Source: Camelus ferus | Lineage: Eukaryota | DNA length: 64,000 nt | Direction: 5' to 3' | Assembly: GCF_009834535.1 (NCBI RefSeq) | Contig: NC_045696.1 | Location: forward strand, 10,232,001-10,296,000 | Shown: piece after piece, positions 1-34,085 of the stretch | How the letters are laid out: each line of letters starts with the position of its first letter | Position numbering within the stretch: position 1 is the first letter of the stretch | The notes under the pieces: generated by a model | What the model was told of the DNA's origin: nothing | The model's input: the letters and a program-made list of their open reading frames with translations, nothing else | Database searches by the model: none | Translations under genes and position numbers: made by a program

Positions 1-344
1 CTTTAGTAGTATCAGTAGTAGATTTTTTTTTAATTATCATGAAAATAGTGTATCTCTTATAACTAAACTGTATAGAACCATAATAAACTAAAAAGTGAAA
101 ACTGCCCTTCACCACCCCCACCCCCAACAACAATTTACACTTTCCAGAGATAATCACTGTGAAGTTTAGTGTAGCTCTTTCCAGACTTTTTCCACAGTGG
201 GTGTATATTTTCAATGTTATTTATTATACAATTGATGGCATTTTGAAATTTCAGTGATCATGAGTGTTAATTGATGAATTCTGTATATTGAAGGGTTTTT
301 TTCTTGGTACTCTACTAATTTTTGTGTTCTTTGTTTCCTAAAAG

Positions 345-548
345 ACTCCTCACGTATCAGTCTCCGAACCTGATATTCCGTCCTCAGAAAGTACTGAGTT
401 ACCTGTGGACTGGAGTATTAAAACTCGACTCCTTTTCACCTCTTCTCAGCCCTTTACCTGGGCAGATCATCTGAAAGCACAGGAAGAGGCTCAAGGTGTC
501 ATCCAGCATTGTAGGGCAACAGAAGTTACTTTGCCTCAAAGTATACAG
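345..548 (+). CDS. DONSON: DONSON internal coding exon (exon 3 by human numbering; gene starts upstream of window)
   Basis: AG at 343-344 and GT at 549; 204 nt encoding [51 protein letters not shown]...QSIQ. Confidence 0.9.
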
Positions 549-1506
549 GTAATTCTCAAAGTAAATAGCTATGTTTTAAGCTAACAAATTAAGTGTAAAA
601 TGTACTTCTCTGCAGAATATCAGAGATAGTTCCATTAAGTTTTTCTTCTGACATTTAAAACACAGAAAGTTGGGAAAATTTTTAATTTCCCAAATGATAC
701 TTTCATACTTTTTAAAATCAGATTCAGTAACTACTCATTAAATTTAGAGAGCTATCCTGAGAATAAGTCAGTGTTGCATGGAGGAATTGTTTAAACTAAT
801 CATTCTTTTCTAAGGCTTTTTGAGAAAGAAAATGTAAGGAAAAGAAATGAAAAGCAGTTGAGTAGGATTGCCAAGGCAGATTGGTTATTTTACTGATTTT
901 TTTCACGTAATATATACTCTGTTTTTTAAATGCACTAATTCTTGCCATTAGGGTGATGGTCTGTTTTAAATTCAGTAGAGTTAATAATGAGTTCTGGAAT
1001 GATTTTAGAGAAATGTAATTGCATTACTTTCAAGGAGCTCATCAACTCAAACCAGGTTATAAGAGATTACCTAAAAGAGGCCTGTCTTTTTCGACAAATA
1101 GATCTGGATGATTTGTGATTCACATCATTTTTACTGGCTACTTTTGGAACCGTTTGTGAGGGAAGGAGGTTGAACATAGTGTTTCCTACACATGCATCCC
1201 CACACACACCCCTGCTCTCGTGGTAGAGATAGTTACTGTTCTCAAGGGTGGTAGAGACAGGCGAATGTTCCCATCTGTGTCTGAGTGTTCCTTCTAATAT
1301 GTGGTTTAACAGATTGTAATTGCTGGCAGATAAGGTTTTCCTAAACAATAATAAACTACATTTTAGCCCCTGTAACAGTTACTAACACTTTCCTATAGGA
1401 AGCAGTAAAGATTCTGAGAATGTGTTTAGTATATTCAGTGTCTTTTTAATTAAATTCTCTACTTTTAATGGGGCAAAAACTGTCCAACGTTTTGTCTGGA
1501 TTTTAG

Positions 1507-1685
1507 GATCCCAAACTCTGCACTGAGCTCCGTTGTGCCTTCCAGCAGAGCCTTATCTATTGGCTCCACCCTGCCTTTTCTTGGCTACCACTGTTCCCTC
1601 GTATTGGAGCGGACAGAAGAATGGCTGGAAAGACAAACCCATGGTCGAATGATGAAACCCTGCAACACAATTTAATGAGTGACTG
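1507..1685 (+). CDS. DONSON: DONSON exon 4
   Basis: ttttag/gtaag flanks; [39 protein letters not shown]...MSDW. Confidence 0.92.
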
Positions 1686-1902
1686 GTAAGATTAGTAAAA
1701 ACTTGTACAACCCAGTAGCGAATTTTCATTTTAGCAGTATTCTCACCTTATTTTATGATGTGGAAATGTAAAGTGGTAGAAGGATTTCTATGTCCTTCTG
1801 AATTATTTAAACTGTTAATAACCAAGATTTAAACTGTTTACTTTTTTAGCTCTTATTCACTCTTTATGCAGTTGTGGAATATATATGTGTTCGATAAGTA
1901 TA

Positions 1903-2503
1903 TAGAGACATAATTTTTTTAACATACAGAAAACCTCTTTATTGAAGAATAACTTAATGTACACAGACTCTTCTAAGTGTACAATTAAATGCCTTTTAGT
2001 AAATTTATATCGTTGTACAACCATTGCTAAGTTTTAGATCGTTTACCTCATCCCAGAAAGTTTTCTCATGCCCATTTGCATTAATTCCTGATCCCACTCC
2101 TAGCCCCAAATGACCACTGATTTATTTCTGTATCAGTAGATTTGCCTTTTCTAGACATTGTATATAAATGTAGTGTTCTGAGTTCTTTCCCTTAGAATAA
2201 TGGTTTTGAAGCTCATCCATATGGTGTCATGTATAATTAGGTTTCTTTTTATTGCTGAATAGTATTCTACTTCAGCATTACTTTCTAATTTTTTTTTTTG
2301 TATATATATTTTTTTATTGAAGTATAGTTAGTTTACAATGTTTTCTCAATTTTTGGTGAACAGCATAATGCTTTAGTCATACATGAATGTACATGTATTT
2401 GTTTTCTTACTCTTTTTCACCGTAAGTTACTATAAGATATTGAATATAGTTCCCTGTGCTATATATACAGTATAAACTTGTTTATCTATTTTAGAGACAT
2501 AAT
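1903..2503 (-). mobile_element. Truncated L1 3' end plus older L1M-type fragment inside one target-site duplication
   Basis: TAGAGACATAAT at 1903-1914 and 2492-2503; T-runs at 1914-1920 and 2289-2299; TTTATTGAAG L1 termini at 1938 and 2313. Confidence 0.7.
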
Positions 2504-2840
2504 CTTAAATGTTACTTCTTATCAGTGGCTGCTTTCTTTCTCATCAGTAGAAGCTGCTTATTAAAAGTCAGCAACCACTTATTAAGTAAGTTTTGTTGAA
2601 AGAAAAAATGGCTAGTGTTTAAATGGTGAACACTATTTATTTAGAAGTCATCAATGAGTCCCATGACCAATTTCAGTTCTTTAAAAAGCCAGGTTGTGTG
2701 TCATGGCAAAAATTCAAACCATTATCTGTAATATTTGTGTTTTAAATCAGGTGAGTATCAAATTAAACTATACAAGATTAAATAGTAGGTGTTGAGTTAA
2801 GTGTTTAATGGTACCTAAAGAAAAATTTTTTGCTTCATAG

Positions 2841-3019
2841 GTCTGTGAGCTTTACTTCTCTATATAATCTGCTGAAGACAAGACTTTGCCCCTTTTTCTA
2901 CGTTTGTACCTATCAGTTTACTGTCCTGTTCCGTGCAGCAGGATTAGCTGGAAATGATGTAATCACAGCTCTCGTATCTCCTACGACCAGAGGTATAAGA
3001 GAAGCTATGAAAAACGAAG
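2841..3019 (+). CDS. DONSON: DONSON exon 5
   Basis: catag/gtaaa flanks; [34 protein letters not shown]...[13 protein letters not shown]; inside ORF 2830-3087. Confidence 0.92.
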
Positions 3020-3321
3020 GTAAAACTACAGGTTTAAGTGAGAATACCACACCATACAGTAAAGTTTCCTTAAAAGCTAAAATTTGAACTGTCTTTTGAA
3101 TTCTCTTTTACCAGTTTTATCTAATTAATTACTTTATTTCTTCATTTTTTATTTTTCTCCAGCATGTAATTAAGCAGTCCACTGCACATGGCTTTATGTT
3201 AGTGGTGTTCCCTTCTCTGATCTCTAAACATATATTGAACTGAAAAGTCTCAATCTGGATATGTTCTGTAGAAATTCTTTTGCAGTACAAATTAACCTAC
3301 CACCTTTTAATCATGATTTTA

Positions 3322-3520
3322 AGGCTGGGTCAACCCATTAGTGGATCATGAAATCTATGTAGTGGGCTTATTCAGCACAGTTTAAAATAAATGAAATAGA
3401 GTAGAATATAGTTGATGGAGGAGTACCAGATGTAGTGAGAGTACGTGTTGTTTCCTGAACCTTTTGTTTCAAGGATGTGTGTGTTGTGAGCTGCTGTCAA
3501 AAAAGCTTGAAAAGTACTGT
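3322..3520. mobile_element. MER103-like hAT-Charlie DNA transposon remnant
   Basis: TCAACCCATTAGTGGATCATGAAATC...AAATGAAATAGAGTAGAATA...AAAAAAGCTTGAAAAGTACTG resembles the recalled consensus. Confidence 0.5.
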
Positions 3521-3642
3521 CTTAACCGTTCAAGTGTAAAACCTCATTTTCGGATATCATACTCTACAAGTTGGGCACACCTATTGAATTCTTTTAGATT
3601 ATATCAAAGAAAACTCAGTTACATTTTTCTTTTCTCATGTAG

Positions 3643-3721
3643 GTATTGAATTTTCTCTGCCTTTAATAAAAGAAAATTGCCATGAGAAGAAGAAAGCATC
3701 TGAAACAAGCTTGGGACATGA
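3643..3721 (+). CDS. DONSON: DONSON exon 6
   Basis: tgtag/gtatgt flanks; (G)IEFSLPLIKENCHEKKKASETSLGH; phase consistent with neighbours. Confidence 0.85.
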
Positions 3722-3839
3722 GTATGTGATTAAGAGAACCTTTCACATCATGTGGTGACTTAGGGGTTCAGTGCAATAGTTTTATAGAGGAAACAGCGTT
3801 ATGAAATGGGAACCGTAACTGACTGTAGCAATTTCCTAG

Positions 3840-3944
3840 GGAGCAAGCAGTCAGCGATGAGGATGAAGAAGAAAGTTTTTCCTGGCTAGAGGAGATGGGT
3901 GTGCAAGATAGAATCAAAAAACCAGACGTACTTTCTATCAAGTT
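3840..3944 (+). CDS. DONSON: DONSON exon 7 (followed by U12-type intron)
   Basis: cctag acceptor; [34 protein letters not shown]; donor GTATCCTTT at 3945. Confidence 0.88.
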
Positions 3945-4425
3945 GTATCCTTTCATTTGCTGTTAACTGGAATTGATTTTCATTGAATTAAGTTAGTGGC
4001 AGTTTTTTTTGACTATAATCTTAAATTATCTTTAAGATCCTATTAAAACTGATTCTCCATCATGACACTAAAAAAAAATCCTTAAACAAAAAAGAAAAAA
4101 GCCCTAAGGACCAATAAACCCTAAATTATTTAACTTTTTTTAAGTGAAAATGTTCCATTTTGGTTAAATGTAGGGAGGGAATAGAACATATTTTTGACTA
4201 GAAAAGAAATTAGTTTTTTTAGGTATCAATTTCTAGCAAATTTAGACAGTCAAAGGAAATCATTTTGATTTAAATAGATGCCTTATAATTGCAGTGAAGA
4301 GGATTAGCTAGAGCAGTTCCAGTTTGGAATGGGGAAAATGGTTTCAGGTGATTCAGGATCAAGATAACTGCTTTTCCTATTGGCATGGGATTTGCATTTG
4401 CAATTTCCTTGATTGTCATCTTCAG

Positions 4426-4624
4426 GCGTAAAGAAAAACACGAAATACAAATGGATCACAGACCTGAGTCTGTTGTGTTGGTAAAGGGATTGAACACCTT
4501 TACATTGCTAAATTTTTTGATCAACTCTAAGAGTTTAATTGCTACCTCAGGTCCACAGGCAGGACTTCCACCAACTCTCCTGTCCCCAGTAGCTTTCCGG
4601 GGTGCCACAATGCAAATGCTTAAG
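4426..4624 (+). CDS. DONSON: DONSON exon 8
   Basis: ttcag/gtaat flanks; [21 protein letters not shown]...[21 protein letters not shown]. Confidence 0.92.
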
Positions 4625-5366
4625 GTAATAAAAAGAAAACAAAGGAAATTCTACACTAATATCTAGCTTTTAAAGTCATACTTTTTGTTTTGATAGGATA
4701 AATTCTTTATGTGTTTTTAATAACTCCTAATATCTACATGGTACAAATTGTTTTTTGCTTTCCTCCCAGTAAAAAAATTCCTTGGTATAAAGTTCTATCA
4801 GAGCAATTAAATGAAAATATATTAATTATATGAAATGTTATACTTGAATTATTGCCGTAAGAAAAAGTTGTTTAATCTCATTTTGTCTCATTTCTTAACC
4901 AGTAAATGAACAGAGCCAAGAATGTTACGTAAAATTACAGGATGTCTCAAAAACTGGATCATGGATAAGTGAAAAGAATAACTATATATCCAAATTATTG
5001 AAAAAATTACACATGTAAATAAAAAATGTATACTGAATATAGTAGTAACACAATTGAATTTTTAGTTTCCCAATATTCTGTATTGAAACTATACTCATAA
5101 GTCAGAAAGAATACCATATTAAGAAACTGTTCTCTAGAATTAATACTTAAATTGACAATCTCATAATTTGGAGAAGAGGATTCTGGAAGCTGAGAATTAC
5201 TTAACATTTTTTACTGGTGTAACATTCTTTTGACGGCTTATGAACTACTTTTGTTTCATAACTATTAGAGAAGAAAACCCAGATGAGAGAAGTTATGGAA
5301 CACATTTTAGCTAGGGACAAAATCTTGAAAGATGGTGACCATGATTTTCTTTAAATTTTTTTGAAG

Positions 5367-5579
5367 GCACGCAGTGTAAATGTGAAGACACAAGCTCTTT
5401 CTGGATACAAAGATCAATTTAGTTTGGAAATTACAGGTCCTGTCATGCCTCATTCTCTACATTCCATGACCATGCTCCTCAGATCTTCACAGAGTGGGTC
5501 ATTTTCTGCAGGACTGTATACACACGAGCCAACTGCTGTGTTTAATATCTGCCCACCAATGGATGAAGTACTAGATAAG
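5367..5579 (+). CDS. DONSON: DONSON exon 9
   Basis: tgaag/gtgag flanks; [32 protein letters not shown]...DEVLDK. Confidence 0.92.
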
Positions 5580-6028
5580 GTGAGACTGCTGTGAGCAGAT
5601 CGTCTGCCGTTTCCTCAAGCTGGATGGAGGAAATAAGCGATTTATAAGCCAAAATGGGGCGTTTCAAGTTATTAAACTGTACTACTTACTATTATCACTA
5701 GTTACTAAGAGGAAGGGATAAAGACTGAGTTTTTTGTGAGATAAATTTTATGAATTCAGGCTGATGTATTCAACATTGACTAAGAAACTTCCCAGTTCTT
5801 TTCATTGTCCTCTGAGATCCAAAACTTAATAGTGCCTGGCTCCTTTACTATAAATTGTGGGTGTTTATTTAACCATGTTTGCCTTTTAAAAACTTTGGAC
5901 ATACGTAGTTTTTTATTTAGAGTTTATGAAAGACTCTTAAATTGTCCGTTTTATCAGTTTGCTACTTAAACTCTTCAGTGTTCAAAGACTGACGTGCTTT
6001 TAATTAAGTTGCATTCAAATTTCCACAG

Positions 6029-6166
6029 GAGGCTGTTCATGAGGAGCTTGCTAACTGTGGATTGCACCCTAAGACTCTGAACCAACTTAGTCAAACACCA
6101 ACACTGGGGAAATCATCTTTACGGCATGTGGAAATGAGTGACTACATTTATAGTTGGAGATCCTGA
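6029..6166 (+). CDS. DONSON: DONSON last coding exon
   Basis: ccacag acceptor; [45 protein letters not shown] then TGA at 6164-6166. Confidence 0.9.
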
Positions 6167-6961: not shown

Positions 6962-7865
6962 CCAGAGAAGTTTATATTTGGGCCTTAAGCTTTTGAAAAT
7001 AAAGTTTAGAGACATAGCATATGGATACCACTGTAATACACATGAAATATTCTATCAGACCCTAAAAATTAACATAAACTTAAACTTTCTCATAGTCAAC
7101 AAAATAGTGGCTGGGTGCCGATTTTATTAGATAAGTTGGTTACAGCATTTTAATTATCATTTTACGTCTATCTAGGTGTAGCTGAAATTCAAAATGCACA
7201 TCAAAGTAAAACTATATCACAACTCAATGCCATACTAAATGTACTTGGCCTCTGCAGAATTCTAGTCAGACTTCATTTTGACTCCCTTCTCATTCATGGC
7301 CCAGGTGGCTTTGACAGAAACGCAGGACTTAGTGCTGATCATCACACAACAAACCACTTTCTTTTTATAACCTCTACAAAATTTTAAAGGGGACACGGTG
7401 GCATTAGCCCTGTGGAACAGATCTTGCTTGATTACCTCAATAACACTGGCCCAGTATCTGTCCAGCAGAACCCATTGTGAACTAGTACAAGGTGCACAGC
7501 CCTTCACTGATTACAGGCAAGTGTTACAGCAGCCTAGCCGTAAGGAAGGGGAGTTACATCATAGTACAAAATACAGTATAAAAGCGTTATTTAACATTCC
7601 ACACTGAAGATTACGGATGCCTTCAAACAATCGTTTGGATGTTAGCCACTTAAACAAATACATCACTAAGGTAAACAATATAAACATACCAAAACCCTGT
7701 ATGGTTAAATACAATTTCCATGGTACAAAAATCAAAGCCTGGAGATGTTTGTACAGATTGCTTTTTACACAATGTCTTAAATTGCCAAATATTTACAACA
7801 TTAAAGAGGAAATACATTTTGATGCAGAGTAAAATTATCTGAAATGATTAATATAAAACCTCAAT

Positions 7866-8024
7866 CTATCTACGTGAGGCACTCCTGAAGCAAGTGGCAT
7901 TAGCCATGAGGTCCTTTGGTACAAGGCCCATTGCTTGAAGAACCACAGTAGCTGCTGTGGCTTTAGCATGCTTCTTATTAGGGCTGGCAAAGCTGGGCTG
8001 GTAAGCGCTTCCATTTATCAATAC
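7866..8024 (-). CDS. SON: SON last exon, downstream acceptor (completes the dsRBM; spliced total 2481 aa)
   Basis: AG at 8025-8026; VLINGSAYQPSFASPNKKHAKATAATVVLQAMGLVPKDLMANATCFRSASRR then TAG. Confidence 0.85.
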   Translation of the reverse strand, partial: VLINGSAYQPSFASPNKKHAKATAATVVLQAMGLVPKDLMANATCFRSASRR

Positions 8025-8077
8025 CTATTCAAGAAAAACATACAATTGGGCTGGTAAGGGCTTCCATTTCTCAATAC
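8018..8077 (-). CDS. SON: SON last exon, upstream duplicated acceptor (short C-terminus; spliced total 2448 aa)
   Basis: AG at 8078-8079; VLRNGSPYQPNCMFFLNRY then TGA; resembles recalled canonical mammalian SON end ...CMFFLNRY. Confidence 0.85.
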   Translation of the reverse strand, partial: VLRNGSPYQPNCMFFLNRY

Positions 8078-8575
8078 CTATTCAAGAAAAACATACAAGG
8101 AACAGCATCAAACTTTAATATCTATTAGGTTTGTATTTTTTTTTCACTAAATGCTAGAAAAATACTTTATAAAAATCTAAAACCCCATACTATGTAAGTC
8201 AAACTAATCTCAACCCAGAAAGAAGCAAATCATTTGAGAAAAGGGACTGCAAATTAAGAGCAGGTCTCCAAACTGAAGGGGGGAAAAAAACCTGATAAAA
8301 ACTAAATTATTTCCCCGGGTTCCACTGGAAAAGGGCAACAAACCGTTCACCAGATTTTGCCCACCTCTGTCCCTCCAACATTTAAAAAATATATCAACAG
8401 GTCATATTAAAGCATATTTAAATGTTTAAAAATTCCACTACTATACCCACATATAAACATACTCCCAACCCATAACACATTAATCCTGTGATCGTATAAT
8501 GCTAATCCCTTACCCTCTAACATTAAGTCATCAAATTAATAACTGTATACAATTAATGCAGAAATTCATATTTAC

Positions 8576-8691
8576 CCTAAAGAGAAAATGTTTGCGATGA
8601 TCAGGGCCACTATCATGGACCAAGAGAAATTCAGGTGGTTGCCACCTTCTCTTATTACAGATTTCCATCAAGGCAGACACAGGATGTTTGC
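8576..8691 (-). CDS. SON: SON exon 11 (dsRBM N-terminal half)
   Basis: GKHPVSALMEICNKRRWQPPEFLLVHDSGPDHRKHFLFR; canonical AG/GT. Confidence 0.92.
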
Positions 8692-8798: not shown

Positions 8799-8870
8799 CT
8801 GACAGATCTTTCATTGCAGCCGAGAAGTTCCCAGACCTCTTTTGTGCTCTTTCTCCTACAGCAACAAGAC
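8799..8870 (-). CDS. SON: SON exon 10
   Basis: 72 nt, GLVAVGERAQKRSGNFSAAMKDLS; AG/GTGAG. Confidence 0.9.
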
Positions 8871-10415
8871 CTTAAAACAAAAACAAATTATGTTCACTGA
8901 ATAAATTTCAAAGCATCATTTAAAAATATTCAACTCCCACTACCCTTAATTTCTGTTTAAATCTTGACTTGTTTTGCTGTTTCAATATACAAATCTATAC
9001 GTAGTCATGTCTTAGTATTAGAAAATTGTATAAAATTAAAATGTTCAGAAAATACTAGAATATATGACTACATACATAAATTGCCATAATTAACTCCAGA
9101 TGTTTCCCTGTAAGTTTAACATAGTCGATATCTGCAAATGATTTCTAAAGGTTTCCCATTCCTTAAAAAAAGATGCTCACTTTAGTATGTTCCCCAAGGG
9201 ACAAGGACTTTAGGCCAAAACAAAGTAAAAAAGTGAGAAAAGTTTTCTCATGGATAACTGGGTCCAATTTTTCCCCAGCAAACAAGCCCTTTCTGACTTC
9301 ACAGCCTCATTTTTCCAAAGGGGTTCAGCTATATTACTATCTAAAACCAATGTTTTCCATTTATCCTAGGGGGAATTCTTCAACTAGTTATTTGTCAATT
9401 CTGCCACTATGTTTTCCTAAACCCAGGTCACGTTGCATAATTCCAAAAGGACTACTCCCTGGAATTATGCAGTGCATCCACAGATGTTTTCTTTCAATAA
9501 ACCACCTTTCATGACACAAAGAATCTATTCAACTTGTATTAAGTAGTATAATGACAATGTGACAATCAGTACAATGTCTTTTTCAAACTTAATCTGAATT
9601 AATGCTATAGTATACAATGATTCTTAGGTTATTTCCAGCTTATTTTTGATTAGCAGAATTATAATAAATTCCCTCCAATTTGGAATAAAATTCTAATCGT
9701 TGTGTTAACACAGTATTCTTATGTGGATGACAATGTAGAAATTCTGATGCAAAACATTTTTAAAACACGTAATTCAGTCAGAGCTAGTTGGTTTCCAAAT
9801 TCATTAAGACAATTTAATTACATTAACTTCAACTTAACTTTCGATCTAATTACGAAGATCAGGAAAATAAATTCATTTAAATTTTTCCAGTTTTTAAAAA
9901 TCAGGCATAAACAAGCTATTAAAATCACATTGAGCTGGCAGCCCCAAGAAACTACACTGGACATTATTCCAAGGGAAGAAATGCAACAAGAAGTGGTAGC
10001 ACTGTTGTCAGCAGGGGGTCTACTACTCTAGCCCCAGGATAGAGAACTCAATTACTAAGCTTGAAAAAGGACATGCAAAAAGGGCTTATAAAGTGAAGAC
10101 TAAAGAGCACTCTAACAGGAAATAAGGAGAATATATCGGGTAAAATAACTGAAAATGAAAAAATAAATCCAATAAATAAATAAATAAATAAAATAAAATT
10201 CTAGAAACAAAGGCAAGCATATGCTCCCTGTCAAGACAACAAAATGGAATTTCATTTTCTAAACATATCAAACTTAAAATTTAATTATATATTCACATAA
10301 AAGTTGCCTTTTAATTTCAAATTAGTGTTTCCATCTTTTTTTATGTAGTGTCTGAAATGGGTTAAACTTTTGTTTTCTTAACAAGGAGCTGTACATATAT
10401 CGTTAAGTGTCTCTA

Positions 10416-10546
10416 GGGAGGAGGTACAGCTCAGTGGCAGAGCGCATGCTTAGCACGCATGAGGTTCTGGGTTCAATCCCCAGTACCTCCTTTAAAAATA
10501 AATAAACCTAATTATCTCCCCACCCCCCCAAAAACAAACAAAATAA
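10416..10546 (+). mobile_element. tRNA-derived SINE (camelid Vic-1-like)
   Basis: A-box AGCTCAGTGG, B-box GGTTCAATCC, then CCCAGTACCTCC, AAATAAACCTAATT and C-rich/A-rich tail. Confidence 0.8.
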
Positions 10547-11008: not shown

Positions 11009-11156
11009 CTTTTCGGTCTGTCTTAAAATCAACTAGAATAGGTTCCTTATTTCCTTCTTTGTTTTTTCCTAATCCTTCTCCTTCTCTCCAGCCCATTTTT
11101 CTCATCAAAACGGCTCCCATTCCTCCAGTTACTGGGGCTGCTCTTAAGAACTGATC
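11009..11156 (-). CDS. SON: SON exon 9 (G-patch domain)
   Basis: DQFLRAAPVTGGMGAVLMRKMGWREGEGLGKNKEGNKEPILVDFKTDRK; G-patch glycine pattern; AG/GTAAG. Confidence 0.93.
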
Positions 11157-28103: not shown

Positions 28104-31100
28104 TCAAATCCGTCAGACGTTTAGGTGATCTGCCTCTTTCAGAAGACCTGGATCGTTTACGACGGATGGGAGATCTGCTAAACCTTCTTCTCAAAGGTGT
28201 TCGTGATCGCCTTAATCTGACTGGTGATATACTGAAGCTTCGTCTTCTTGCCACAGACCTTGATCTCCTCCGACGGCTAGGCGTACGACTCCGTCGGCTT
28301 GGGGTCCGGCTCCGTCGACTTGGGGTGCGGCTCCTTCGGCTCGGGGTGCGGCTCCGTCTGCTGGGGGTGCGGCTCCTTCGGCTCGGGGTGCGGCTCCGTC
28401 GGCTCGGGGTGCGGCTCCGTCGGCTCGGGGAAATGCTAAAGCTCCTTCTCCCTGCAGATCTAGATCTTCTTCGACGACTAGGAGTGTGACTCCGGCTCCG
28501 ACGACTTGGGGTGCGACTTCGAGCTCTACCTGTTTTCCGGTTATCCCTGGAGCTTGATCTTTTCCTTTTTCTTTCCCTGGACTTGGATCTGTGCTTTGGA
28601 GATCTTTTGCGCTTCTCTTTTGATACAGATCGCCTTCCTCTAGACTTTGATCTTGACCTGCTGCTCCTCCTCCTGCGTCTTGATCGTGACCGTGAACGTG
28701 TCTGAGAGCGATGAGACTTTGACTTAGATGATCTCTTCCTTGCCCTGGAACGAGATTCACTGGTGCGCTTTCGTGATTTGTGTTCAGAAGACTTGGAACG
28801 CTTACTTCGAGATCTTAACGAAGAGTCTCTTTTCTTCTCTTTCTCACCTTTGTCACGGTTCTTATTTTTCTTGCTTTTTTCATGTGTGTCCTTAACTTTC
28901 ACAAAAATTTCATAATCATCTTTCTCCTCTGAAGAAGACTCTGAAGCTCTTTCTGGTATACTAATAACCACCGGACTGGTAGCAGATTTATCCCGTTCAA
29001 CTTCACTCGCAAGTGAAGATCCTTCAATACCAGCTCTAAGACTTGTAAGACGTTCCATGTCCTTAGGAAGTAATGGTCTCACTAAATCTGCTTCATTAAT
29101 ATCATCAATATTGGCAGAAAATCCCGACTCAGGCAACATCTCTTTAGGAGGGAGAGATAATTCTTTATCTTCTCCACTACTTTCTTTAGAACTGAGAGCA
29201 ACTGCTAATGTCTGGTCACTCTCTTGTATAGGGAATGGTCCTTCTGCATCCTTACTAATAAAGTTATTATTAGATGGTAAATCAAGATGAATGTCTTTAG
29301 CAGGCAAAGGTCCCTCTATGTCAGCTTCACTACCACCACTGGGGCTGGTGGAAATTACCATGTCATGTTCAGTATCTTGAGTAGTTAAAGGTACTTCAAT
29401 ATCATATTTACTAACTGAACTGAGAGCAGATGCTGTGGCAAATTCAAAACCCTTACCAGTTCCCATGGCATCAGGTTCAAGAGCAAGGGGACCAGGGGAA
29501 GACAGAGTTCCTCCTACATCAGCTTCACTAACACTAGGGCAGGTATCCAATACTGTGCATTGTTCAGTCTCGTTGGTGGGCACAACTTTCTCTTCACCAA
29601 TTTCACCAACAGCACCAGTGCTGACAGCAGACACTGTATTATGGTCCATCTCTTTAACAATTAAGTGATTATTTATATTAAGATCAATATTTATACCATT
29701 TTCAGTTTCATAGGAGTCATTTTTCAGGTGTCCTTCAGCATGTGGCTCTTCATCCGAATGCATGGGAATCTCCTGCATGCCAGTCTCTGGAGCAAGATTT
29801 TCATCACCAGATAGTAAATTCATTCTTTTTATAACACTAGATTCCAGTGTTATTGGCGTAGACTCTAAAACCATGTCAGTAGGTATTACCTGAGTCTGCT
29901 CTGAGATGGTGACAGCAGGCTCTGAAATTGTCACAGTGGATTCTTGAACAGAAATAGATGGTTCTGAAACAATCATGTTAGGCTGAAGGACTGACACCAC
30001 TGGTTCCAGGACTGGTACAGCAGGCTCCAGGGCAGAAACAACTGGCACAGGAATGGTAACATGCTCTGGCTCAGACAATGCCAAGGGCTCTGGGACAGCC
30101 TCGGCCAGTGGGTCCTGGATAGCCTCCACTGGTGGGTCTTGGACGGCCACAGCCGGTGGCTCTGGGACAGCCACGGCCGGTGGCTCTGGGGCAGCCACGG
30201 CCGGTGGTGCTGGGGCAGCCACAGCTGGTGGCGCTGGGACAGCCACGGCTGGTGGCTCTGGGACAGCTACAGCTGGCGGCTCTGAGACTGCCATGGCTGG
30301 CAGCTCTAGAGTACTCTGGGATGGCTCTGGGATAGGTACTGCTGGTTCCAGCAGAGACATAGATACCTCTGAGGCAACACGTCCTGAAGCTCTCATGCAA
30401 TCGTAAGTTTCTGCCATCTCTGACATAACAGAAGGCTCTGATGTTAACACAGCTGGTTCAGCTGACATTATGGGAATTTCAGACACCACGTAACTCACTG
30501 GTCTCTCTGGAACGATTTCATGCTCCTCTGCTACGGCAGCAGACTCTACCGGTGTGGAAGTAACCGAAGGCTCTGGCTCTAGTGGTGGTTCTGGAACAGT
30601 CACAACAGCCTCTGACGCTAACACTGAAGGCTCAGATGCCGACACTGAATAATTAGCGGGCACTGCCGAAGGCTCTGAAATCTCACTCTGACTCACAGGA
30701 GGTTCAGGCAGCGATACAGACTCTTCAGGAGGTAATGCTGGCACCTCGGTAGGCCAAGTATTTTCAGCTGTTAATGCTGACTGCTCTGTGGATAATGCTG
30801 GACCCTCTGGTGGTTCCTCAGGAGGCAATGGTGGTGTCATTGGTGGCTCTTCAGGTGGCAATGGTGGCATTGTTGGAGGCTCTTCAGGAGGCAAAGGTGG
30901 CACCATATATGCCTCCGTGTATGTATCAGTGTAAGAATCGGTGTAAGAATCAGCTGCCATAGACATCATTGAACGATCAGCAGTGTAAGATGACATCATA
31001 GATCGGTCAGCTGCAGAGTACGATGACATCATAGACCGGTCAGCAGCAGAGTATGACGACATCATAGACCGGTCAGCACCCATGGACATCATAGATCGGT

Positions 31101-34085
31101 CAGCCATTGGGGACATCATGGAGCGCTCGTAAGCTGACATCATAGAGCGTTCATAAGCTGACATCATAGAGCGCTCAGCCATAGGGGACATCATAGAACG
31201 CTCATAAGCTGACATCATAGAGCGCTCATAAGCTGACATCATAGAGCGCTCAGCCATAGGGGACATCATAGACCGCTCATAAGACATCATAGAGCGTTCG
31301 TAAGATGACATCATGGAACGTTCTGCAGCATAGGACATCATCATAGAACGTCTAGATGCTAACATCAGGGGTCTAGGTGCTAACCTATATGGCCTGGGGG
31401 CTATTCTATAAGATCTGGGTGCTATCCTATAGGGTCTAGGTGACATCCTATAGGGATCAGGAGTTAGTCTGTAGGGATCATGGCCTAATCTATAGGGGTC
31501 CTGCCCTAACCTGTAGGCGTCATGACCTAGCCTGTAAGGGTCATGACCTAACCTATAGGGATCCTGAGCTAATCTGTAAGGATCTTGAGCTAACCTGTAG
31601 GGATCAGGAGATTTGGAACCCAACATAGCAGAATCTTGGGTACTAGATGCTAACATCTGGGCATCCATGGTACCAGACGCTAACATCTGAGCGTCCATGG
31701 TGCCGGAAGCTAACATCTGAGAGTCCATAGTGCCAGATGCTAACATCTGGGAATCCATAGAGCTAGTTGCTAACATCTGGGAGTCCATGGTGCTGGTTGC
31801 TAACATCTGGGAGTCCATGGTGCTGGTTGCTAACATCTGGGAGTCCATGGAGCTGGTTGCTAACATCTGGGAGTCCATGGAGCTGGTTGCTAACATCTGG
31901 GAGTCCATGGAGCTGGTTGCTAACATCTGGGAGTCCATGGAGCTGGTTGCTAACATCTGGGAGTCCATGGAGCTGGTTGCTAACATCTGGGAGTCCATGG
32001 AGCTGGTTGCTAACATCTGGGAGTCCATGGAGCTAGTTGCTAACATCTGGGAGTCCATGGTGCTAGAGGCTAACATCTGGGAGTCCATGGTGTTGGATGC
32101 TAGCATCTGGGAGTCCATGGTGTTGGACGCTAGCATTTGGGAGTCCATGGTGTTGGATGCTAACATATGGGTCTCCATGGTGTTAGAAGCTAACATATGG
32201 GATTCTTGGGCCATCAAGGGATCCACTCCCACTGTTACAGAAGTCTCCCCCACTAACGTAGTAGGCAGCTCCTGTGCTACCGTATTATAGGACTCCAGCG
32301 CTGTCGTCGAGGGCACCTCCAGGGACTGCGACACGGTCATCGTTGACAGCTCCGTTGTTGTCACCACAGACTGAACAGAGATCTCCAGCGCCACAGTTGC
32401 CACAGGCTGCCCAGGCAACTCTGGCGCCCCAGGCTGCCCTGGCAACTCCAGCACCCCTGTTGCCAAAGGCTGCCCCAAAAGCTCCAGTGCTCCAGCTGCC
32501 CCAGACTGCCCCGAGAACTCCAGTGCCCCAGTCGCCATGAGCTGCCCAGGCAACTCCAGTGCCCCAGTTGCCACAGGCTGCCCCGACAACTCCAGTGCCC
32601 TAGTTGCCGAAGGCAGCCCTGGCAACTCTGGCACCCCAGTCACCGAAGGCTGCCCTGGCAACTCCAGCGCTGTCGTTGCCACTGGCTGTCCTGGCAACTC
32701 CAGCACCATCGCTGCCTCAGGCTGCCCCAGCAACCCTGCTGCGGTTGTCACCTCAGGCTGCCCAGGATGTTCCACCGTTGTCATCCCCACAGGCTGCTCC
32801 AACTCTGTCGTCGTCACAGGTTGTTCCGTCAACTCCATTGCTACCGTTACCACAGGCTGCCCTGGCAACTCTACTGCTGCTGTCACCGCAGGCAGCCCTG
32901 GCAACTCCTGTGCCATCACAGGTGGCTCTGGTACCTCCTGTGGTGGCTCCAACCCCATGGATGGTGCTGGAAGCCCTGGCAATTCCTGTGACAACTGTGG
33001 CACTGATGTCACAGAGGACCCCGGCAACTCAGGCACTGCTGTCGCAGGGGGTCCTAGCAACTCAGGCACTGGGGTAGAAAGGGGCCCTGGCAACTCTGGC
33101 ACCGGGGTAGCAGAGGGCCCAGGTAACTCCAGCACTGGAGTCACAGGGGGCCCCTGCAACTCCGGCATGGAGGTCGCAGGTGGCCCCGGCAACTCCATCG
33201 CTGAGGCCACCAACGACTCCTGCAGCTCCAACGCTGTGGTCTTGGGCAGCTCCAGCACCTCCTGTGGTCTTGTCATGGATGAATCTGCAATCTCCGATGG
33301 TACTTCTACAGGCTGCTCTGGCAATCTTAGCACTTCAGTTGCCGATGACTCTGGAAAATCCGTTGTTGTTGATGTGCTTGGCTCAGGGTGTACCTCAGCA
33401 GGTGTCTCTGATGATACAAGGGTTTCTGGTGGCTCTAGCACTTTTGCTACTGGAGGCTCTAACATGATCTTTGATGGCTCTGGAGGTGTGCTCTCCAAAG
33501 ATTTCAGCACAGACTTCATCTGATACTCCACTGACATTGTTACAACTGGCTCAGATGACTTCGGCGCTACTGTAGTAGTAGGCACTGGTGCTGCTGCAAG
33601 GGAATCCAGAATTTTTGTCATGGATGGTTCCAGCGTTACTGCCACAGACTGCTCTGACTGCACTGAGACTACTGATGTAGATGCAACTGACAGTTCTGCC
33701 ATTTTTGAGGCTGACTTCAGAGTTTCTAAGGTGTGTGGCTCTGATATTTCCATCGATACTACAGGAGGTTCTAGCACAACTGCAGGAGATTCACTGGTGT
33801 CAGACAGGCCAAACACTCTTACAGGATGCTCCAGTGCTGTCGAAGGTTCAGAATCAAACTTCAAAAAGGAATCCGATTCTAAATCTATGTTCCCATCATG
33901 ATGTGATTTCGACTTTGATTCAGATTCTTCTGACTGTCTTTTGTACTTTTTTTCCTTTTCTTTCTTCTTTTTCTTCTTTTTATTTTTGTGCTTTTTATGC
34001 TTCTTTGACTTTTTGGTAGGAATTTCATCAGTAGGATCTGTTTGTACAGACACGCATCTACTTTTTCTGGAAGCCTCCTTCAAGT
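28104..34085 (-). CDS. SON: SON giant exon 3 (5982 nt: K-rich segment, repeat arrays, RS domain)
   Basis: Inside 2001-aa ORF 28090-34095; TTTCAG acceptor at 34086-34087, GTGAGT donor at 28103; MDSQMLATSS, YRL, SMMSAYER, PPLPPEE and PSRRSRT repeats typical of SON. Confidence 0.97.
28262..28520 (-). repeat. Coding 21-nt tandem repeat (PSRRSRT) in SON RS domain
   Basis: Repeated GGGGTGCGGCTCC units. Confidence 0.9.
31640..32200 (-). repeat. Coding 30-nt tandem repeat (MDSQMLATSS) in SON exon 3
   Basis: About 19 units of TAACATCTGGGAGTCCATGGAGCTGGTTGC, central ones identical. Confidence 0.95.

Follow-up and report, generated by a model that had tools for sequence, protein, structure and literature searches.

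The stretch of DNA analysed here, referred to as the window, comprises 64,000 nucleotides of Camelus ferus and carries on its minus strand a gene that an earlier note had called SON, an assignment now backed by matching protein records. SON is a nuclear-speckle scaffold, mutated in ZTTK syndrome. At 28268-33197 of the window many coding-type tandem repeats were found, with periods that are multiples of three, which fits the large repeat exon of SON. A convergent neighbouring gene occupies positions 1-6166 (+) and, by synteny, we take it to be DONSON. An overlap of the SON 3' region with the coding region of this neighbour was considered and rejected, as the latter appears to end at 6166 (+), about 1.8 kb away. 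At 7154, 7128 and 6961 the SON strand contains poly(A)-like hexamers, which would bring the 3' ends of the two genes near each other. The only Rfam match was tRNA-like (RF00005, 61.8 bits, 10420-10491 on the plus strand); it is located in a SON intron (window 10410-10500) and in all likelihood represents the head of a SINE of tRNA origin. The features around the last exon of SON are collected in Table 1.

Table 1. Features of the 3' part of SON, in window coordinates.
Feature	Positions	Strand	Description
Putative G-patch core exon	11009..11156	-	assigned by position; splice sites, and G-patch in matching records; exon-protein match inferred
72-nt exon before the penultimate	8799..8870	-	linker between G-patch and dsRBM
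Penultimate exon	8576..8691	-	helix 1, strand 1, GPDH loop, beginning of strand 2
Branch-point-like sites, upstream acceptor	8107..8130	-	A at 8108 (31 nt above AG) and at 8125 (48 nt above); consensus scan
Upstream copy	8047..8098	-	21-nt intron end, AG (8079-8078), first 30 exon bases coding VLRNGSPYQP
Short tail	8018..8077	-	upstream acceptor; 19 codons and stop, without helix 2
Branch-point-like heptamer, downstream acceptor	8054..8060	-	A at 8055, 31 nt above AG; consensus scan
Third AG	8050..8052	-	inside upstream copy, in frame with short tail; AG listing
Downstream copy, long-form role	7994..8045	-	pyrimidine tract, AG (8026-8025), exon start VLINGSAYQP
Downstream copy, short-form reading	7994..8045	-	N-C-M-F-F-L-N-R-Y-stop-stop
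Long tail	7866..8024	-	downstream acceptor; 52 codons and stop, completes dsRBM
Helix 2 codons	7932..7976	-	KKHAK at start (7976-7962); model helix 117-131 mapped onto translation

The last acceptor of SON is contained in a tandem duplication. TRF reported an array at 7994-8098 with a period of 53, 2.0 copies, 96% matches and no indels, and direct comparison of the two 52-nt copies, at 7994-8045 and 8047-8098 with a spacing of 53, gave 50/52 identical positions (96%). When a 4.6-kb stretch was compared with itself without gaps at lags of 20-200, the highest 52-nt match was 50 in the real sequence, and the maximum in 100 first-order Markov resamples of the same stretch was 34 (mean 30.2). Self-comparison and TRF thus agree with the 53-bp tandem duplication proposed in the earlier note. 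Also in line with that proposal, alignment of the copies places the end of the intron, the AG and the start of the exon in both, the duplicated unit spanning -21 to +31 of the acceptor. Read in the sense of the transcript, the two copies match at every position from -21 to +7, and up to +30 only +8 (AGA/ATA) and +19 (CCT/GCT) differ, which in residues means R/I at codon 3 of the tail and P/A at codon 7. Since the unit ends at -21/-22, the branch-point region was not copied.

The penultimate exon, which encodes positions 1-36 of the Pfam dsrm model, ends on a codon boundary (phase 0), with its donor, GTAAAT, at 8575. Translation from 8077 reads VLRNGSPYQPNCMFFLNRY and then a stop, immediately followed by a second one; translation from 8024 gives a 52-residue tail with NKKHAK, and the acceptor shift of 53 nt (17x3+2) accounts for the change of frame between the two. 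These are the products foreseen in the earlier note, which had assigned the KKxAK helix to the downstream product, and this helix is found both in the translation and as helix 117-131 of the structural model described below. In the short form, the codons of helix 2 belong to the 3' UTR. The earlier statement that both stops fall in the terminal exon holds for the annotated forms, in which neither stop precedes the last exon junction by more than ~50 nt, the AS-NMD criterion; because of this position of the stops both mRNAs are predicted, unless a rare 3' UTR intron exists, to escape NMD, which is compatible with the layout of the locus.

Some further observations were made on the frames flanking the tails. 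Past the double stop, the short-form frame stays open for ~60 codons (window ~7835-8014, minus strand). The read-assembly record P0068 continues through the short-tail stops into this open frame, and in an old human cDNA, P0156, a shift into it occurs towards the end, in agreement with the frame of the window; these matches hint at conservation at the nucleotide level. The beginning of the last intron (8530-8575, minus strand) reads VNMNF, as in the mammal-type read-through records P0002, P0004, P0118, P0129 and P0134, and the shared reading reflects either retained-intron forms or a conserved donor region.

The dsRNA-binding motif (dsRBM), whose contact motifs are named helix 1, the GPxH loop and KKxAK at the start of helix 2, was compared in the two forms. 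For the long form, Pfam dsrm (PF00035; gathering cut-off 23) gave 42.2 and 40.2 bits and covered 1-64 of the 66 model positions, much as for the bird and coelacanth proteins (51.7 and 45.9); the short form remained under the cut-off, with 21.1 and 20.2 bits over positions 1-36 of 66. The short form does pass DND1_DSRM (model 2-47 of 80), and this match may account for its continued labelling as the domain. AlphaFold models were built for a matched pair, P0144 (long) and P0006 (short), which share the same starting methionine and were given the same 28 non-mammalian rows. In the long form the elements H65-75, E82-87, E97-103, E106-108 and H117-131 were obtained, namely the arrangement alpha-beta-beta-beta-alpha with block pLDDT of 79-90 over residues 61-130. 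In the model of the short form the second helix is absent, and with pLDDT falling from 74 to 33 and four of the five models averaging below 50, this low-confidence model is informative on little besides the absent helix. Foldseek found 38 PDB matches at E<=0.001 for the long model, those listed being dsRBD-containing chains, with TM 0.87 and rmsd 1.7 against 1di2_A; for the short model there were 0 matches at this threshold, and TM 0.44, E 0.03 over 46 columns. No solved structure of SON was present among the 56 PDB sequence matches.

The three RNA-contact regions, helix 1, GPxH loop and KKxAK, are all present in the long form and align to the motifs of ADAR1 and TRBP; across 29 rows E71 and G90-P91-D92-H93 are invariant, and K117, K118 and A120 are at least 90% conserved. 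The short form retains the G-patch, helix 1 and the GPDH loop and lacks helix 2 with KKxAK, both in sequence and in the model. Pfam scores, AlphaFold models and Foldseek, in which only the long form passes the DSRM profile and folds with helix 2, support the view, already put forward in the earlier note, of a complete dsRBM in the long form and a truncated one, without helix 2, in the short form. The tip of helix 2 of dsRBDs contacts the phosphate backbone of the RNA, as described in the available part of PMC12665498, and loss of dsRNA binding by the short form is expected by analogy with this binding mode. In comparison with the type-1 dsRBDs of TRBP, Staufen, ADAR1 and Xlrbpa (1di2), the long form shows the same fold, with GPxH and KKxAK aligned, whereas the short form spans 46 columns only.

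Both tails, which the earlier note had ascribed to mammalian SON isoforms, were recovered residue for residue in human database records. The long tail is carried by cDNA FLJ33914, AAL34500.1 (SON isoform D) and CAA45282.1 (son-a), and the short one by RefSeq NP_001399061.1 (isoform I) and, with four changed residues, NP_001278341.1 (isoform H); A0A994J4Y9 is also among the annotated SON isoform records matching the tails. Full-length isoform F presumably ends in the short tail as well. Both tails are annotated in human, Macaca fascicularis, Marmota monax, Phyllostomus discolor, Pipistrellus kuhlii and Rhinolophus ferrumequinum. Human cDNA and RefSeq records, together with read assemblies, show both AGs spliced to one shared donor. 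All of this concerns mammals other than the camel, and as far as cDNA, RefSeq and assembled-read records go, both acceptors are used in mammals. Among the cluster members listed there are at least 14 short-tail read-assembly proteins on 310 contigs and at least 12 long-tail ones on 401, figures that count assemblies among the listed members, not molecules or expression levels, and that leave out P0006 and P0144 (mixed source), P0065 and P0069 (retrocopy-like) and P0066 and P0068 (cut or odd).

An artefact, either a mis-assembly or a tail existing only in gene models, could be suspected from several database tail variants that do resemble model artefacts, such as intron read-through in birds and GALT-type tails. 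Against it, other species share the two fixed differences between the copies, both tails are found in human records that are curated or named as cDNA as well as in spliced frames from read assemblies, and apparently intronless SON copies carry the short junction; we regard this explanation as extremely improbable.

The GALT-type variants have their own pattern. The comparison concerns the human records P0088 and P0085 and window positions 8050-8066 (minus strand): the sequence reads GALTRPN in NP_001278341.1, and GSPYQPN in NP_001399061.1, in the window and in other mammals, so that within the upstream copy GALTRPN would represent a frame change of local extent. GALTPN was found in pig, peccary, dog, marmoset and narwhal models and GALTSN in an ape model; these look like projections of the human GALTRPN reading. 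We take GRCh38 to carry two compensating indels at this site of SON, and such indels at the upstream copy could bias the mapping of junctions. As for the intronless copies, the diverged SON records P0014, P0114, P0116, P0065, P0069, P0113 and P0117 share substitutions at residues 47, 61 and mostly 96; the group spans several exon junctions without introns, P0113 lying on contigs of up to 18 kb, and two of its members are named 'Protein SON' of Pan. All five of these records that reach the tail have the short junction, and the group is probably a primate processed pseudogene derived from a short-tail mRNA. P0058, a mammal-type fragment of SON with the long junction, sits on a 265-base contig assigned to Pseudomonas donghuensis and is probably contamination.

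To place the duplication in time, as the earlier note had suggested through bird, amphibian and fish SON, 358 proteins were fetched, 33 without the anchoring exon pattern were set aside, and the others were assigned to mammal-type or other by exon sequence, not by species label. The 98 mammal-type records comprised 57 with the short tail, 32 with the long tail and 9 with other ends, mostly intron read-through or cut; only species with an annotated short tail count as short, so that losses of the upstream AG are invisible in these counts, and many species records are computed gene models. The 227 non-mammalian records, which cover birds, crocodilians, turtles, amphibians, lungfish, coelacanth, ray-finned fish, sharks, lamprey, molluscs and others, divide into 200 with the long tail and 27 with other ends, the short tail being absent. 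The exact long tail is present in 27/32 mammal-type long-tail records, and the UniRef100 entry of P0144 is labelled Theria. The exact 19-residue short tail, present in 44/57 short-tail records, extends from the marsupial Gracilinanus agilis and the afrotherian Rhynchocyon petersi to primates, rodents, pika, bats, carnivores and cetartiodactyls. Codon 3 of the tail is V/I/L in 196/196 evenly spaced non-mammalian tails; at this codon the downstream copy is therefore ancestral and the Arg of the upstream copy derived. Judged from these protein records, the long tail is ancestral and the short tail a mammalian derivative, and the duplication predates the marsupial-placental split (~160 million years ago), a dating that depends on one named marsupial. 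No monotreme or xenarthran record was found among the proteins and clusters searched, which returned no full-length mammalian SON. Exact pattern scans for the region gave 0 hits in prokaryote genomes and 0 in viral contigs, and three weak metagenome loci out of 368 pattern matches, tried as copies from other species, were rejected, 19 residues at 68% being attributable to chance.

The likeness of the copies might alternatively come from ongoing gene conversion, unequal crossover or a recent duplication, and not from old selection, an identity of 96% being high for an old and partly intronic repeat. However, the R/I and P/A differences are kept across therian orders, and conversion should have erased them somewhere, which makes this explanation very improbable. 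Two reptilian and avian gene models bear on the same point. The turtle model (P0330) closes with CIFFLLNR and the kiwi model (P0334) with YFLNR, the first ten residues being absent from both; they would represent the one acceptor of the ancestor made to fit a gene model with a short tail, with no duplication in these species, and they suggest that the acceptor tract was conserved before the duplication. If so, the argument from the identity of the copies is weakened.

How the splicing machinery could choose between the two AGs was considered from their surroundings. Pyrimidines occupy 11/17 positions at both acceptors and 13, 13 and 16 of 17 at the three upstream acceptors, so that by pyrimidine count both last-exon acceptors would be weak. 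A splice-strength score cannot separate them, because they are identical over -20 to +3; as they are weak and identical from -21 to +7, the choice would rest on branch point and position. The branch-point candidates in Table 1 come from a consensus scan, and their actual use is conjectural. Those of the upstream acceptor fall outside the duplicated unit, and the one at 8055 lies inside the Pro-Tyr codons (7-8) of the short tail, in the upstream copy; the candidates at 8108 and 8055 are at the same distance, 31 nt, above their respective AGs. RNA structure as a switch was discarded, since 261 nt around both acceptors fold like shuffled sequences (z = -0.07). Between the two main sites, at distances of 27 and 26 nt, there is the inner AG at 8050, and a pig record, P0105, carries the 10-residue tail predicted for it. 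In their alternative use of two acceptors for one exon with one shared donor, the SON sites are similar to TASS/NAGNAG and other alternative 3' splice sites, but they are 53 nt apart, the whole acceptor is duplicated and the choice shifts the frame in a terminal exon. TASS are defined by sites within 30 nt in the available part of PMC8055015, a distance exceeded by the two SON acceptors; if the AG at 8050 were used, all three sites would chain into one TASS cluster.

The duplication could be a tolerated accident, fixed as the C-terminus of SON is partly dispensable, with the short form a by-product devoid of role and its tail sequence frozen only through overlap with the splice signals of the long form. 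The branch-point candidate falls within codons 7-8 of the short tail, whose codons 11-18 coincide with the long form's pyrimidine tract and AG, and the turtle and kiwi models would imply that the acceptor tract was already constrained before the duplication; because its codons double as long-form splice signals, conservation of the short tail need not mean protein function. Moreover, as reported in the available parts of the two sources, the depletion of SON in mouse ES cells is rescued in part by a SON devoid of its conserved C-terminal region (2026 preprint, 10.64898/2026.03.20.713095), from which it follows that the domain may matter little, and the DSRBD is dispensable for targeting to a transcription site (PMC3258111). 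This account leaves unexplained that the purely intronic tract of the upstream copy is still 21/21 identical to the downstream copy, and that the upstream AG has been retained from marsupial to cetartiodactyls although one base change would abolish it. We therefore hold it to be unlikely, though well worth keeping in mind.

At the opposite extreme, the short tail could itself be functional, as an interaction surface or a C-terminal degradation signal, so that the event would swap one activity for another. Hydrophobic C-termini can act as degradation signals, and the 19 residues are identical in 44/57 records from marsupial to human, in a form that keeps the G-patch, helix 1 and the GPDH loop. 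However, the tail is predicted to be disordered, with pLDDT below 50 at residues 110-119, and its invariance can be explained by the splice-signal overlap, which renders this proposal improbable in our opinion.

The reading towards which we lean, by a little, is that of a conserved, built-in splitter that yields a dsRBM-competent and a dsRBM-null SON, both escaping NMD. A 53-nt tandem duplication older than the therian split would have copied the last SON acceptor and, with it, ten codons from the start of the terminal exon. The upstream acceptor would keep the old branch-point region and the downstream one would use the equidistant candidate inside the upstream copy. Selection of the downstream AG yields the ancestral protein and, by profile and model, a complete type-1 dsRBM, and selection of the upstream AG shifts the frame, brings in a stop after 19 residues and takes away helix 2 and the KKxAK lysines; from the binding mode of dsRBDs, the resulting domain would probably be neither stably folded nor able to bind dsRNA. 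Both mRNAs would be translated, since both end in the terminal exon, and SON would be split into competent and null pools, perhaps at roughly comparable levels. Regulation of the ratio between the isoforms is possible.

SON promotes splicing at weak splice sites. A stronger version of this splitter would make the duplicated acceptor a regulated, NMD-independent switch that sets the dsRNA binding of SON, with only the long form binding and SON possibly autoregulating the choice; such a regulated switch seems doubtful to us at present. In the available part of 10.1101/2025.01.24.634786, autoregulation by the dsRBD of full-length SON through a conserved dsRNA in a short isoform of the SON B or SON E kind was proposed; the structure is a different one, located upstream, and the proposed mechanism would depend on which tail is made.

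Within a full-text literature that included few subscription papers and no supplements, neither the duplication nor a pair of last-exon acceptors nor a truncated dsRBM of SON was found to be mentioned in the available portions of PMC3424538, PMC4394511, 10.64898/2026.09.28.755153, PMC8455679, PMC7906411, PMC12665498, 10.1101/2025.01.24.634786, PMC3258111, PMC7671692, 10.1101/2024.11.16.623931, PMC8055015, 10.64898/2026.03.20.713095, PMC10422072 and PMC7439338. Again in their available portions, PMC8455679 describes SON as 12 constitutive exons, with exons 5a and 7a as the only alternative ones, PMC7906411, PMC12665498, PMC10422072 and PMC7439338 treat the SON dsRNA-binding motif as one intact domain, and PMC12665498, a 2025 review, lists SON among dsRNA-binding proteins and its dsRNA substrates as still unidentified. 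The SON isoform sequences are thus already annotated, and their origin by duplication and its consequence for the domain were not found in the literature searched. SON B and SON E (exons 5a/7a) likewise lose the dsRBD through alternative processing, but they end far upstream, whereas the loss described here is confined to the last helix, with the G-patch kept and a duplicated acceptor as the cause. Highly conserved alternative events, known as poison exons or AS-NMD, autoregulate splicing-factor genes. The SON case is similar, being a conserved alternative event in a splicing-factor gene that yields an inactive product; in contrast to poison exons, the stop is in the last exon, and the predicted outcome is a translated domain-null protein and not a decayed mRNA.

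If the common reference SON ends with the short tail, as RefSeq isoforms H and I do, its 'dsRBM' would lack the RNA-contacting helix, and domain-deletion or binding experiments on it could not address dsRNA binding. Were the regulated switch to prove true, the dsRNA function of SON would perhaps have been assayed mostly with the wrong isoform, the domain being dead in the curated human forms, and the long form would be the one to test on structured pre-mRNA, for instance Alu pairs or the conserved dsRNA of SON. The interpretation of last-exon variants is also concerned, as they fall in coding sequence in one form of SON and in untranslated sequence in the other. More generally, the locus would offer a clean and datable case in which duplication of a splice site led to a frame-shifted, domain-null isoform, retained since the marsupial-placental split.
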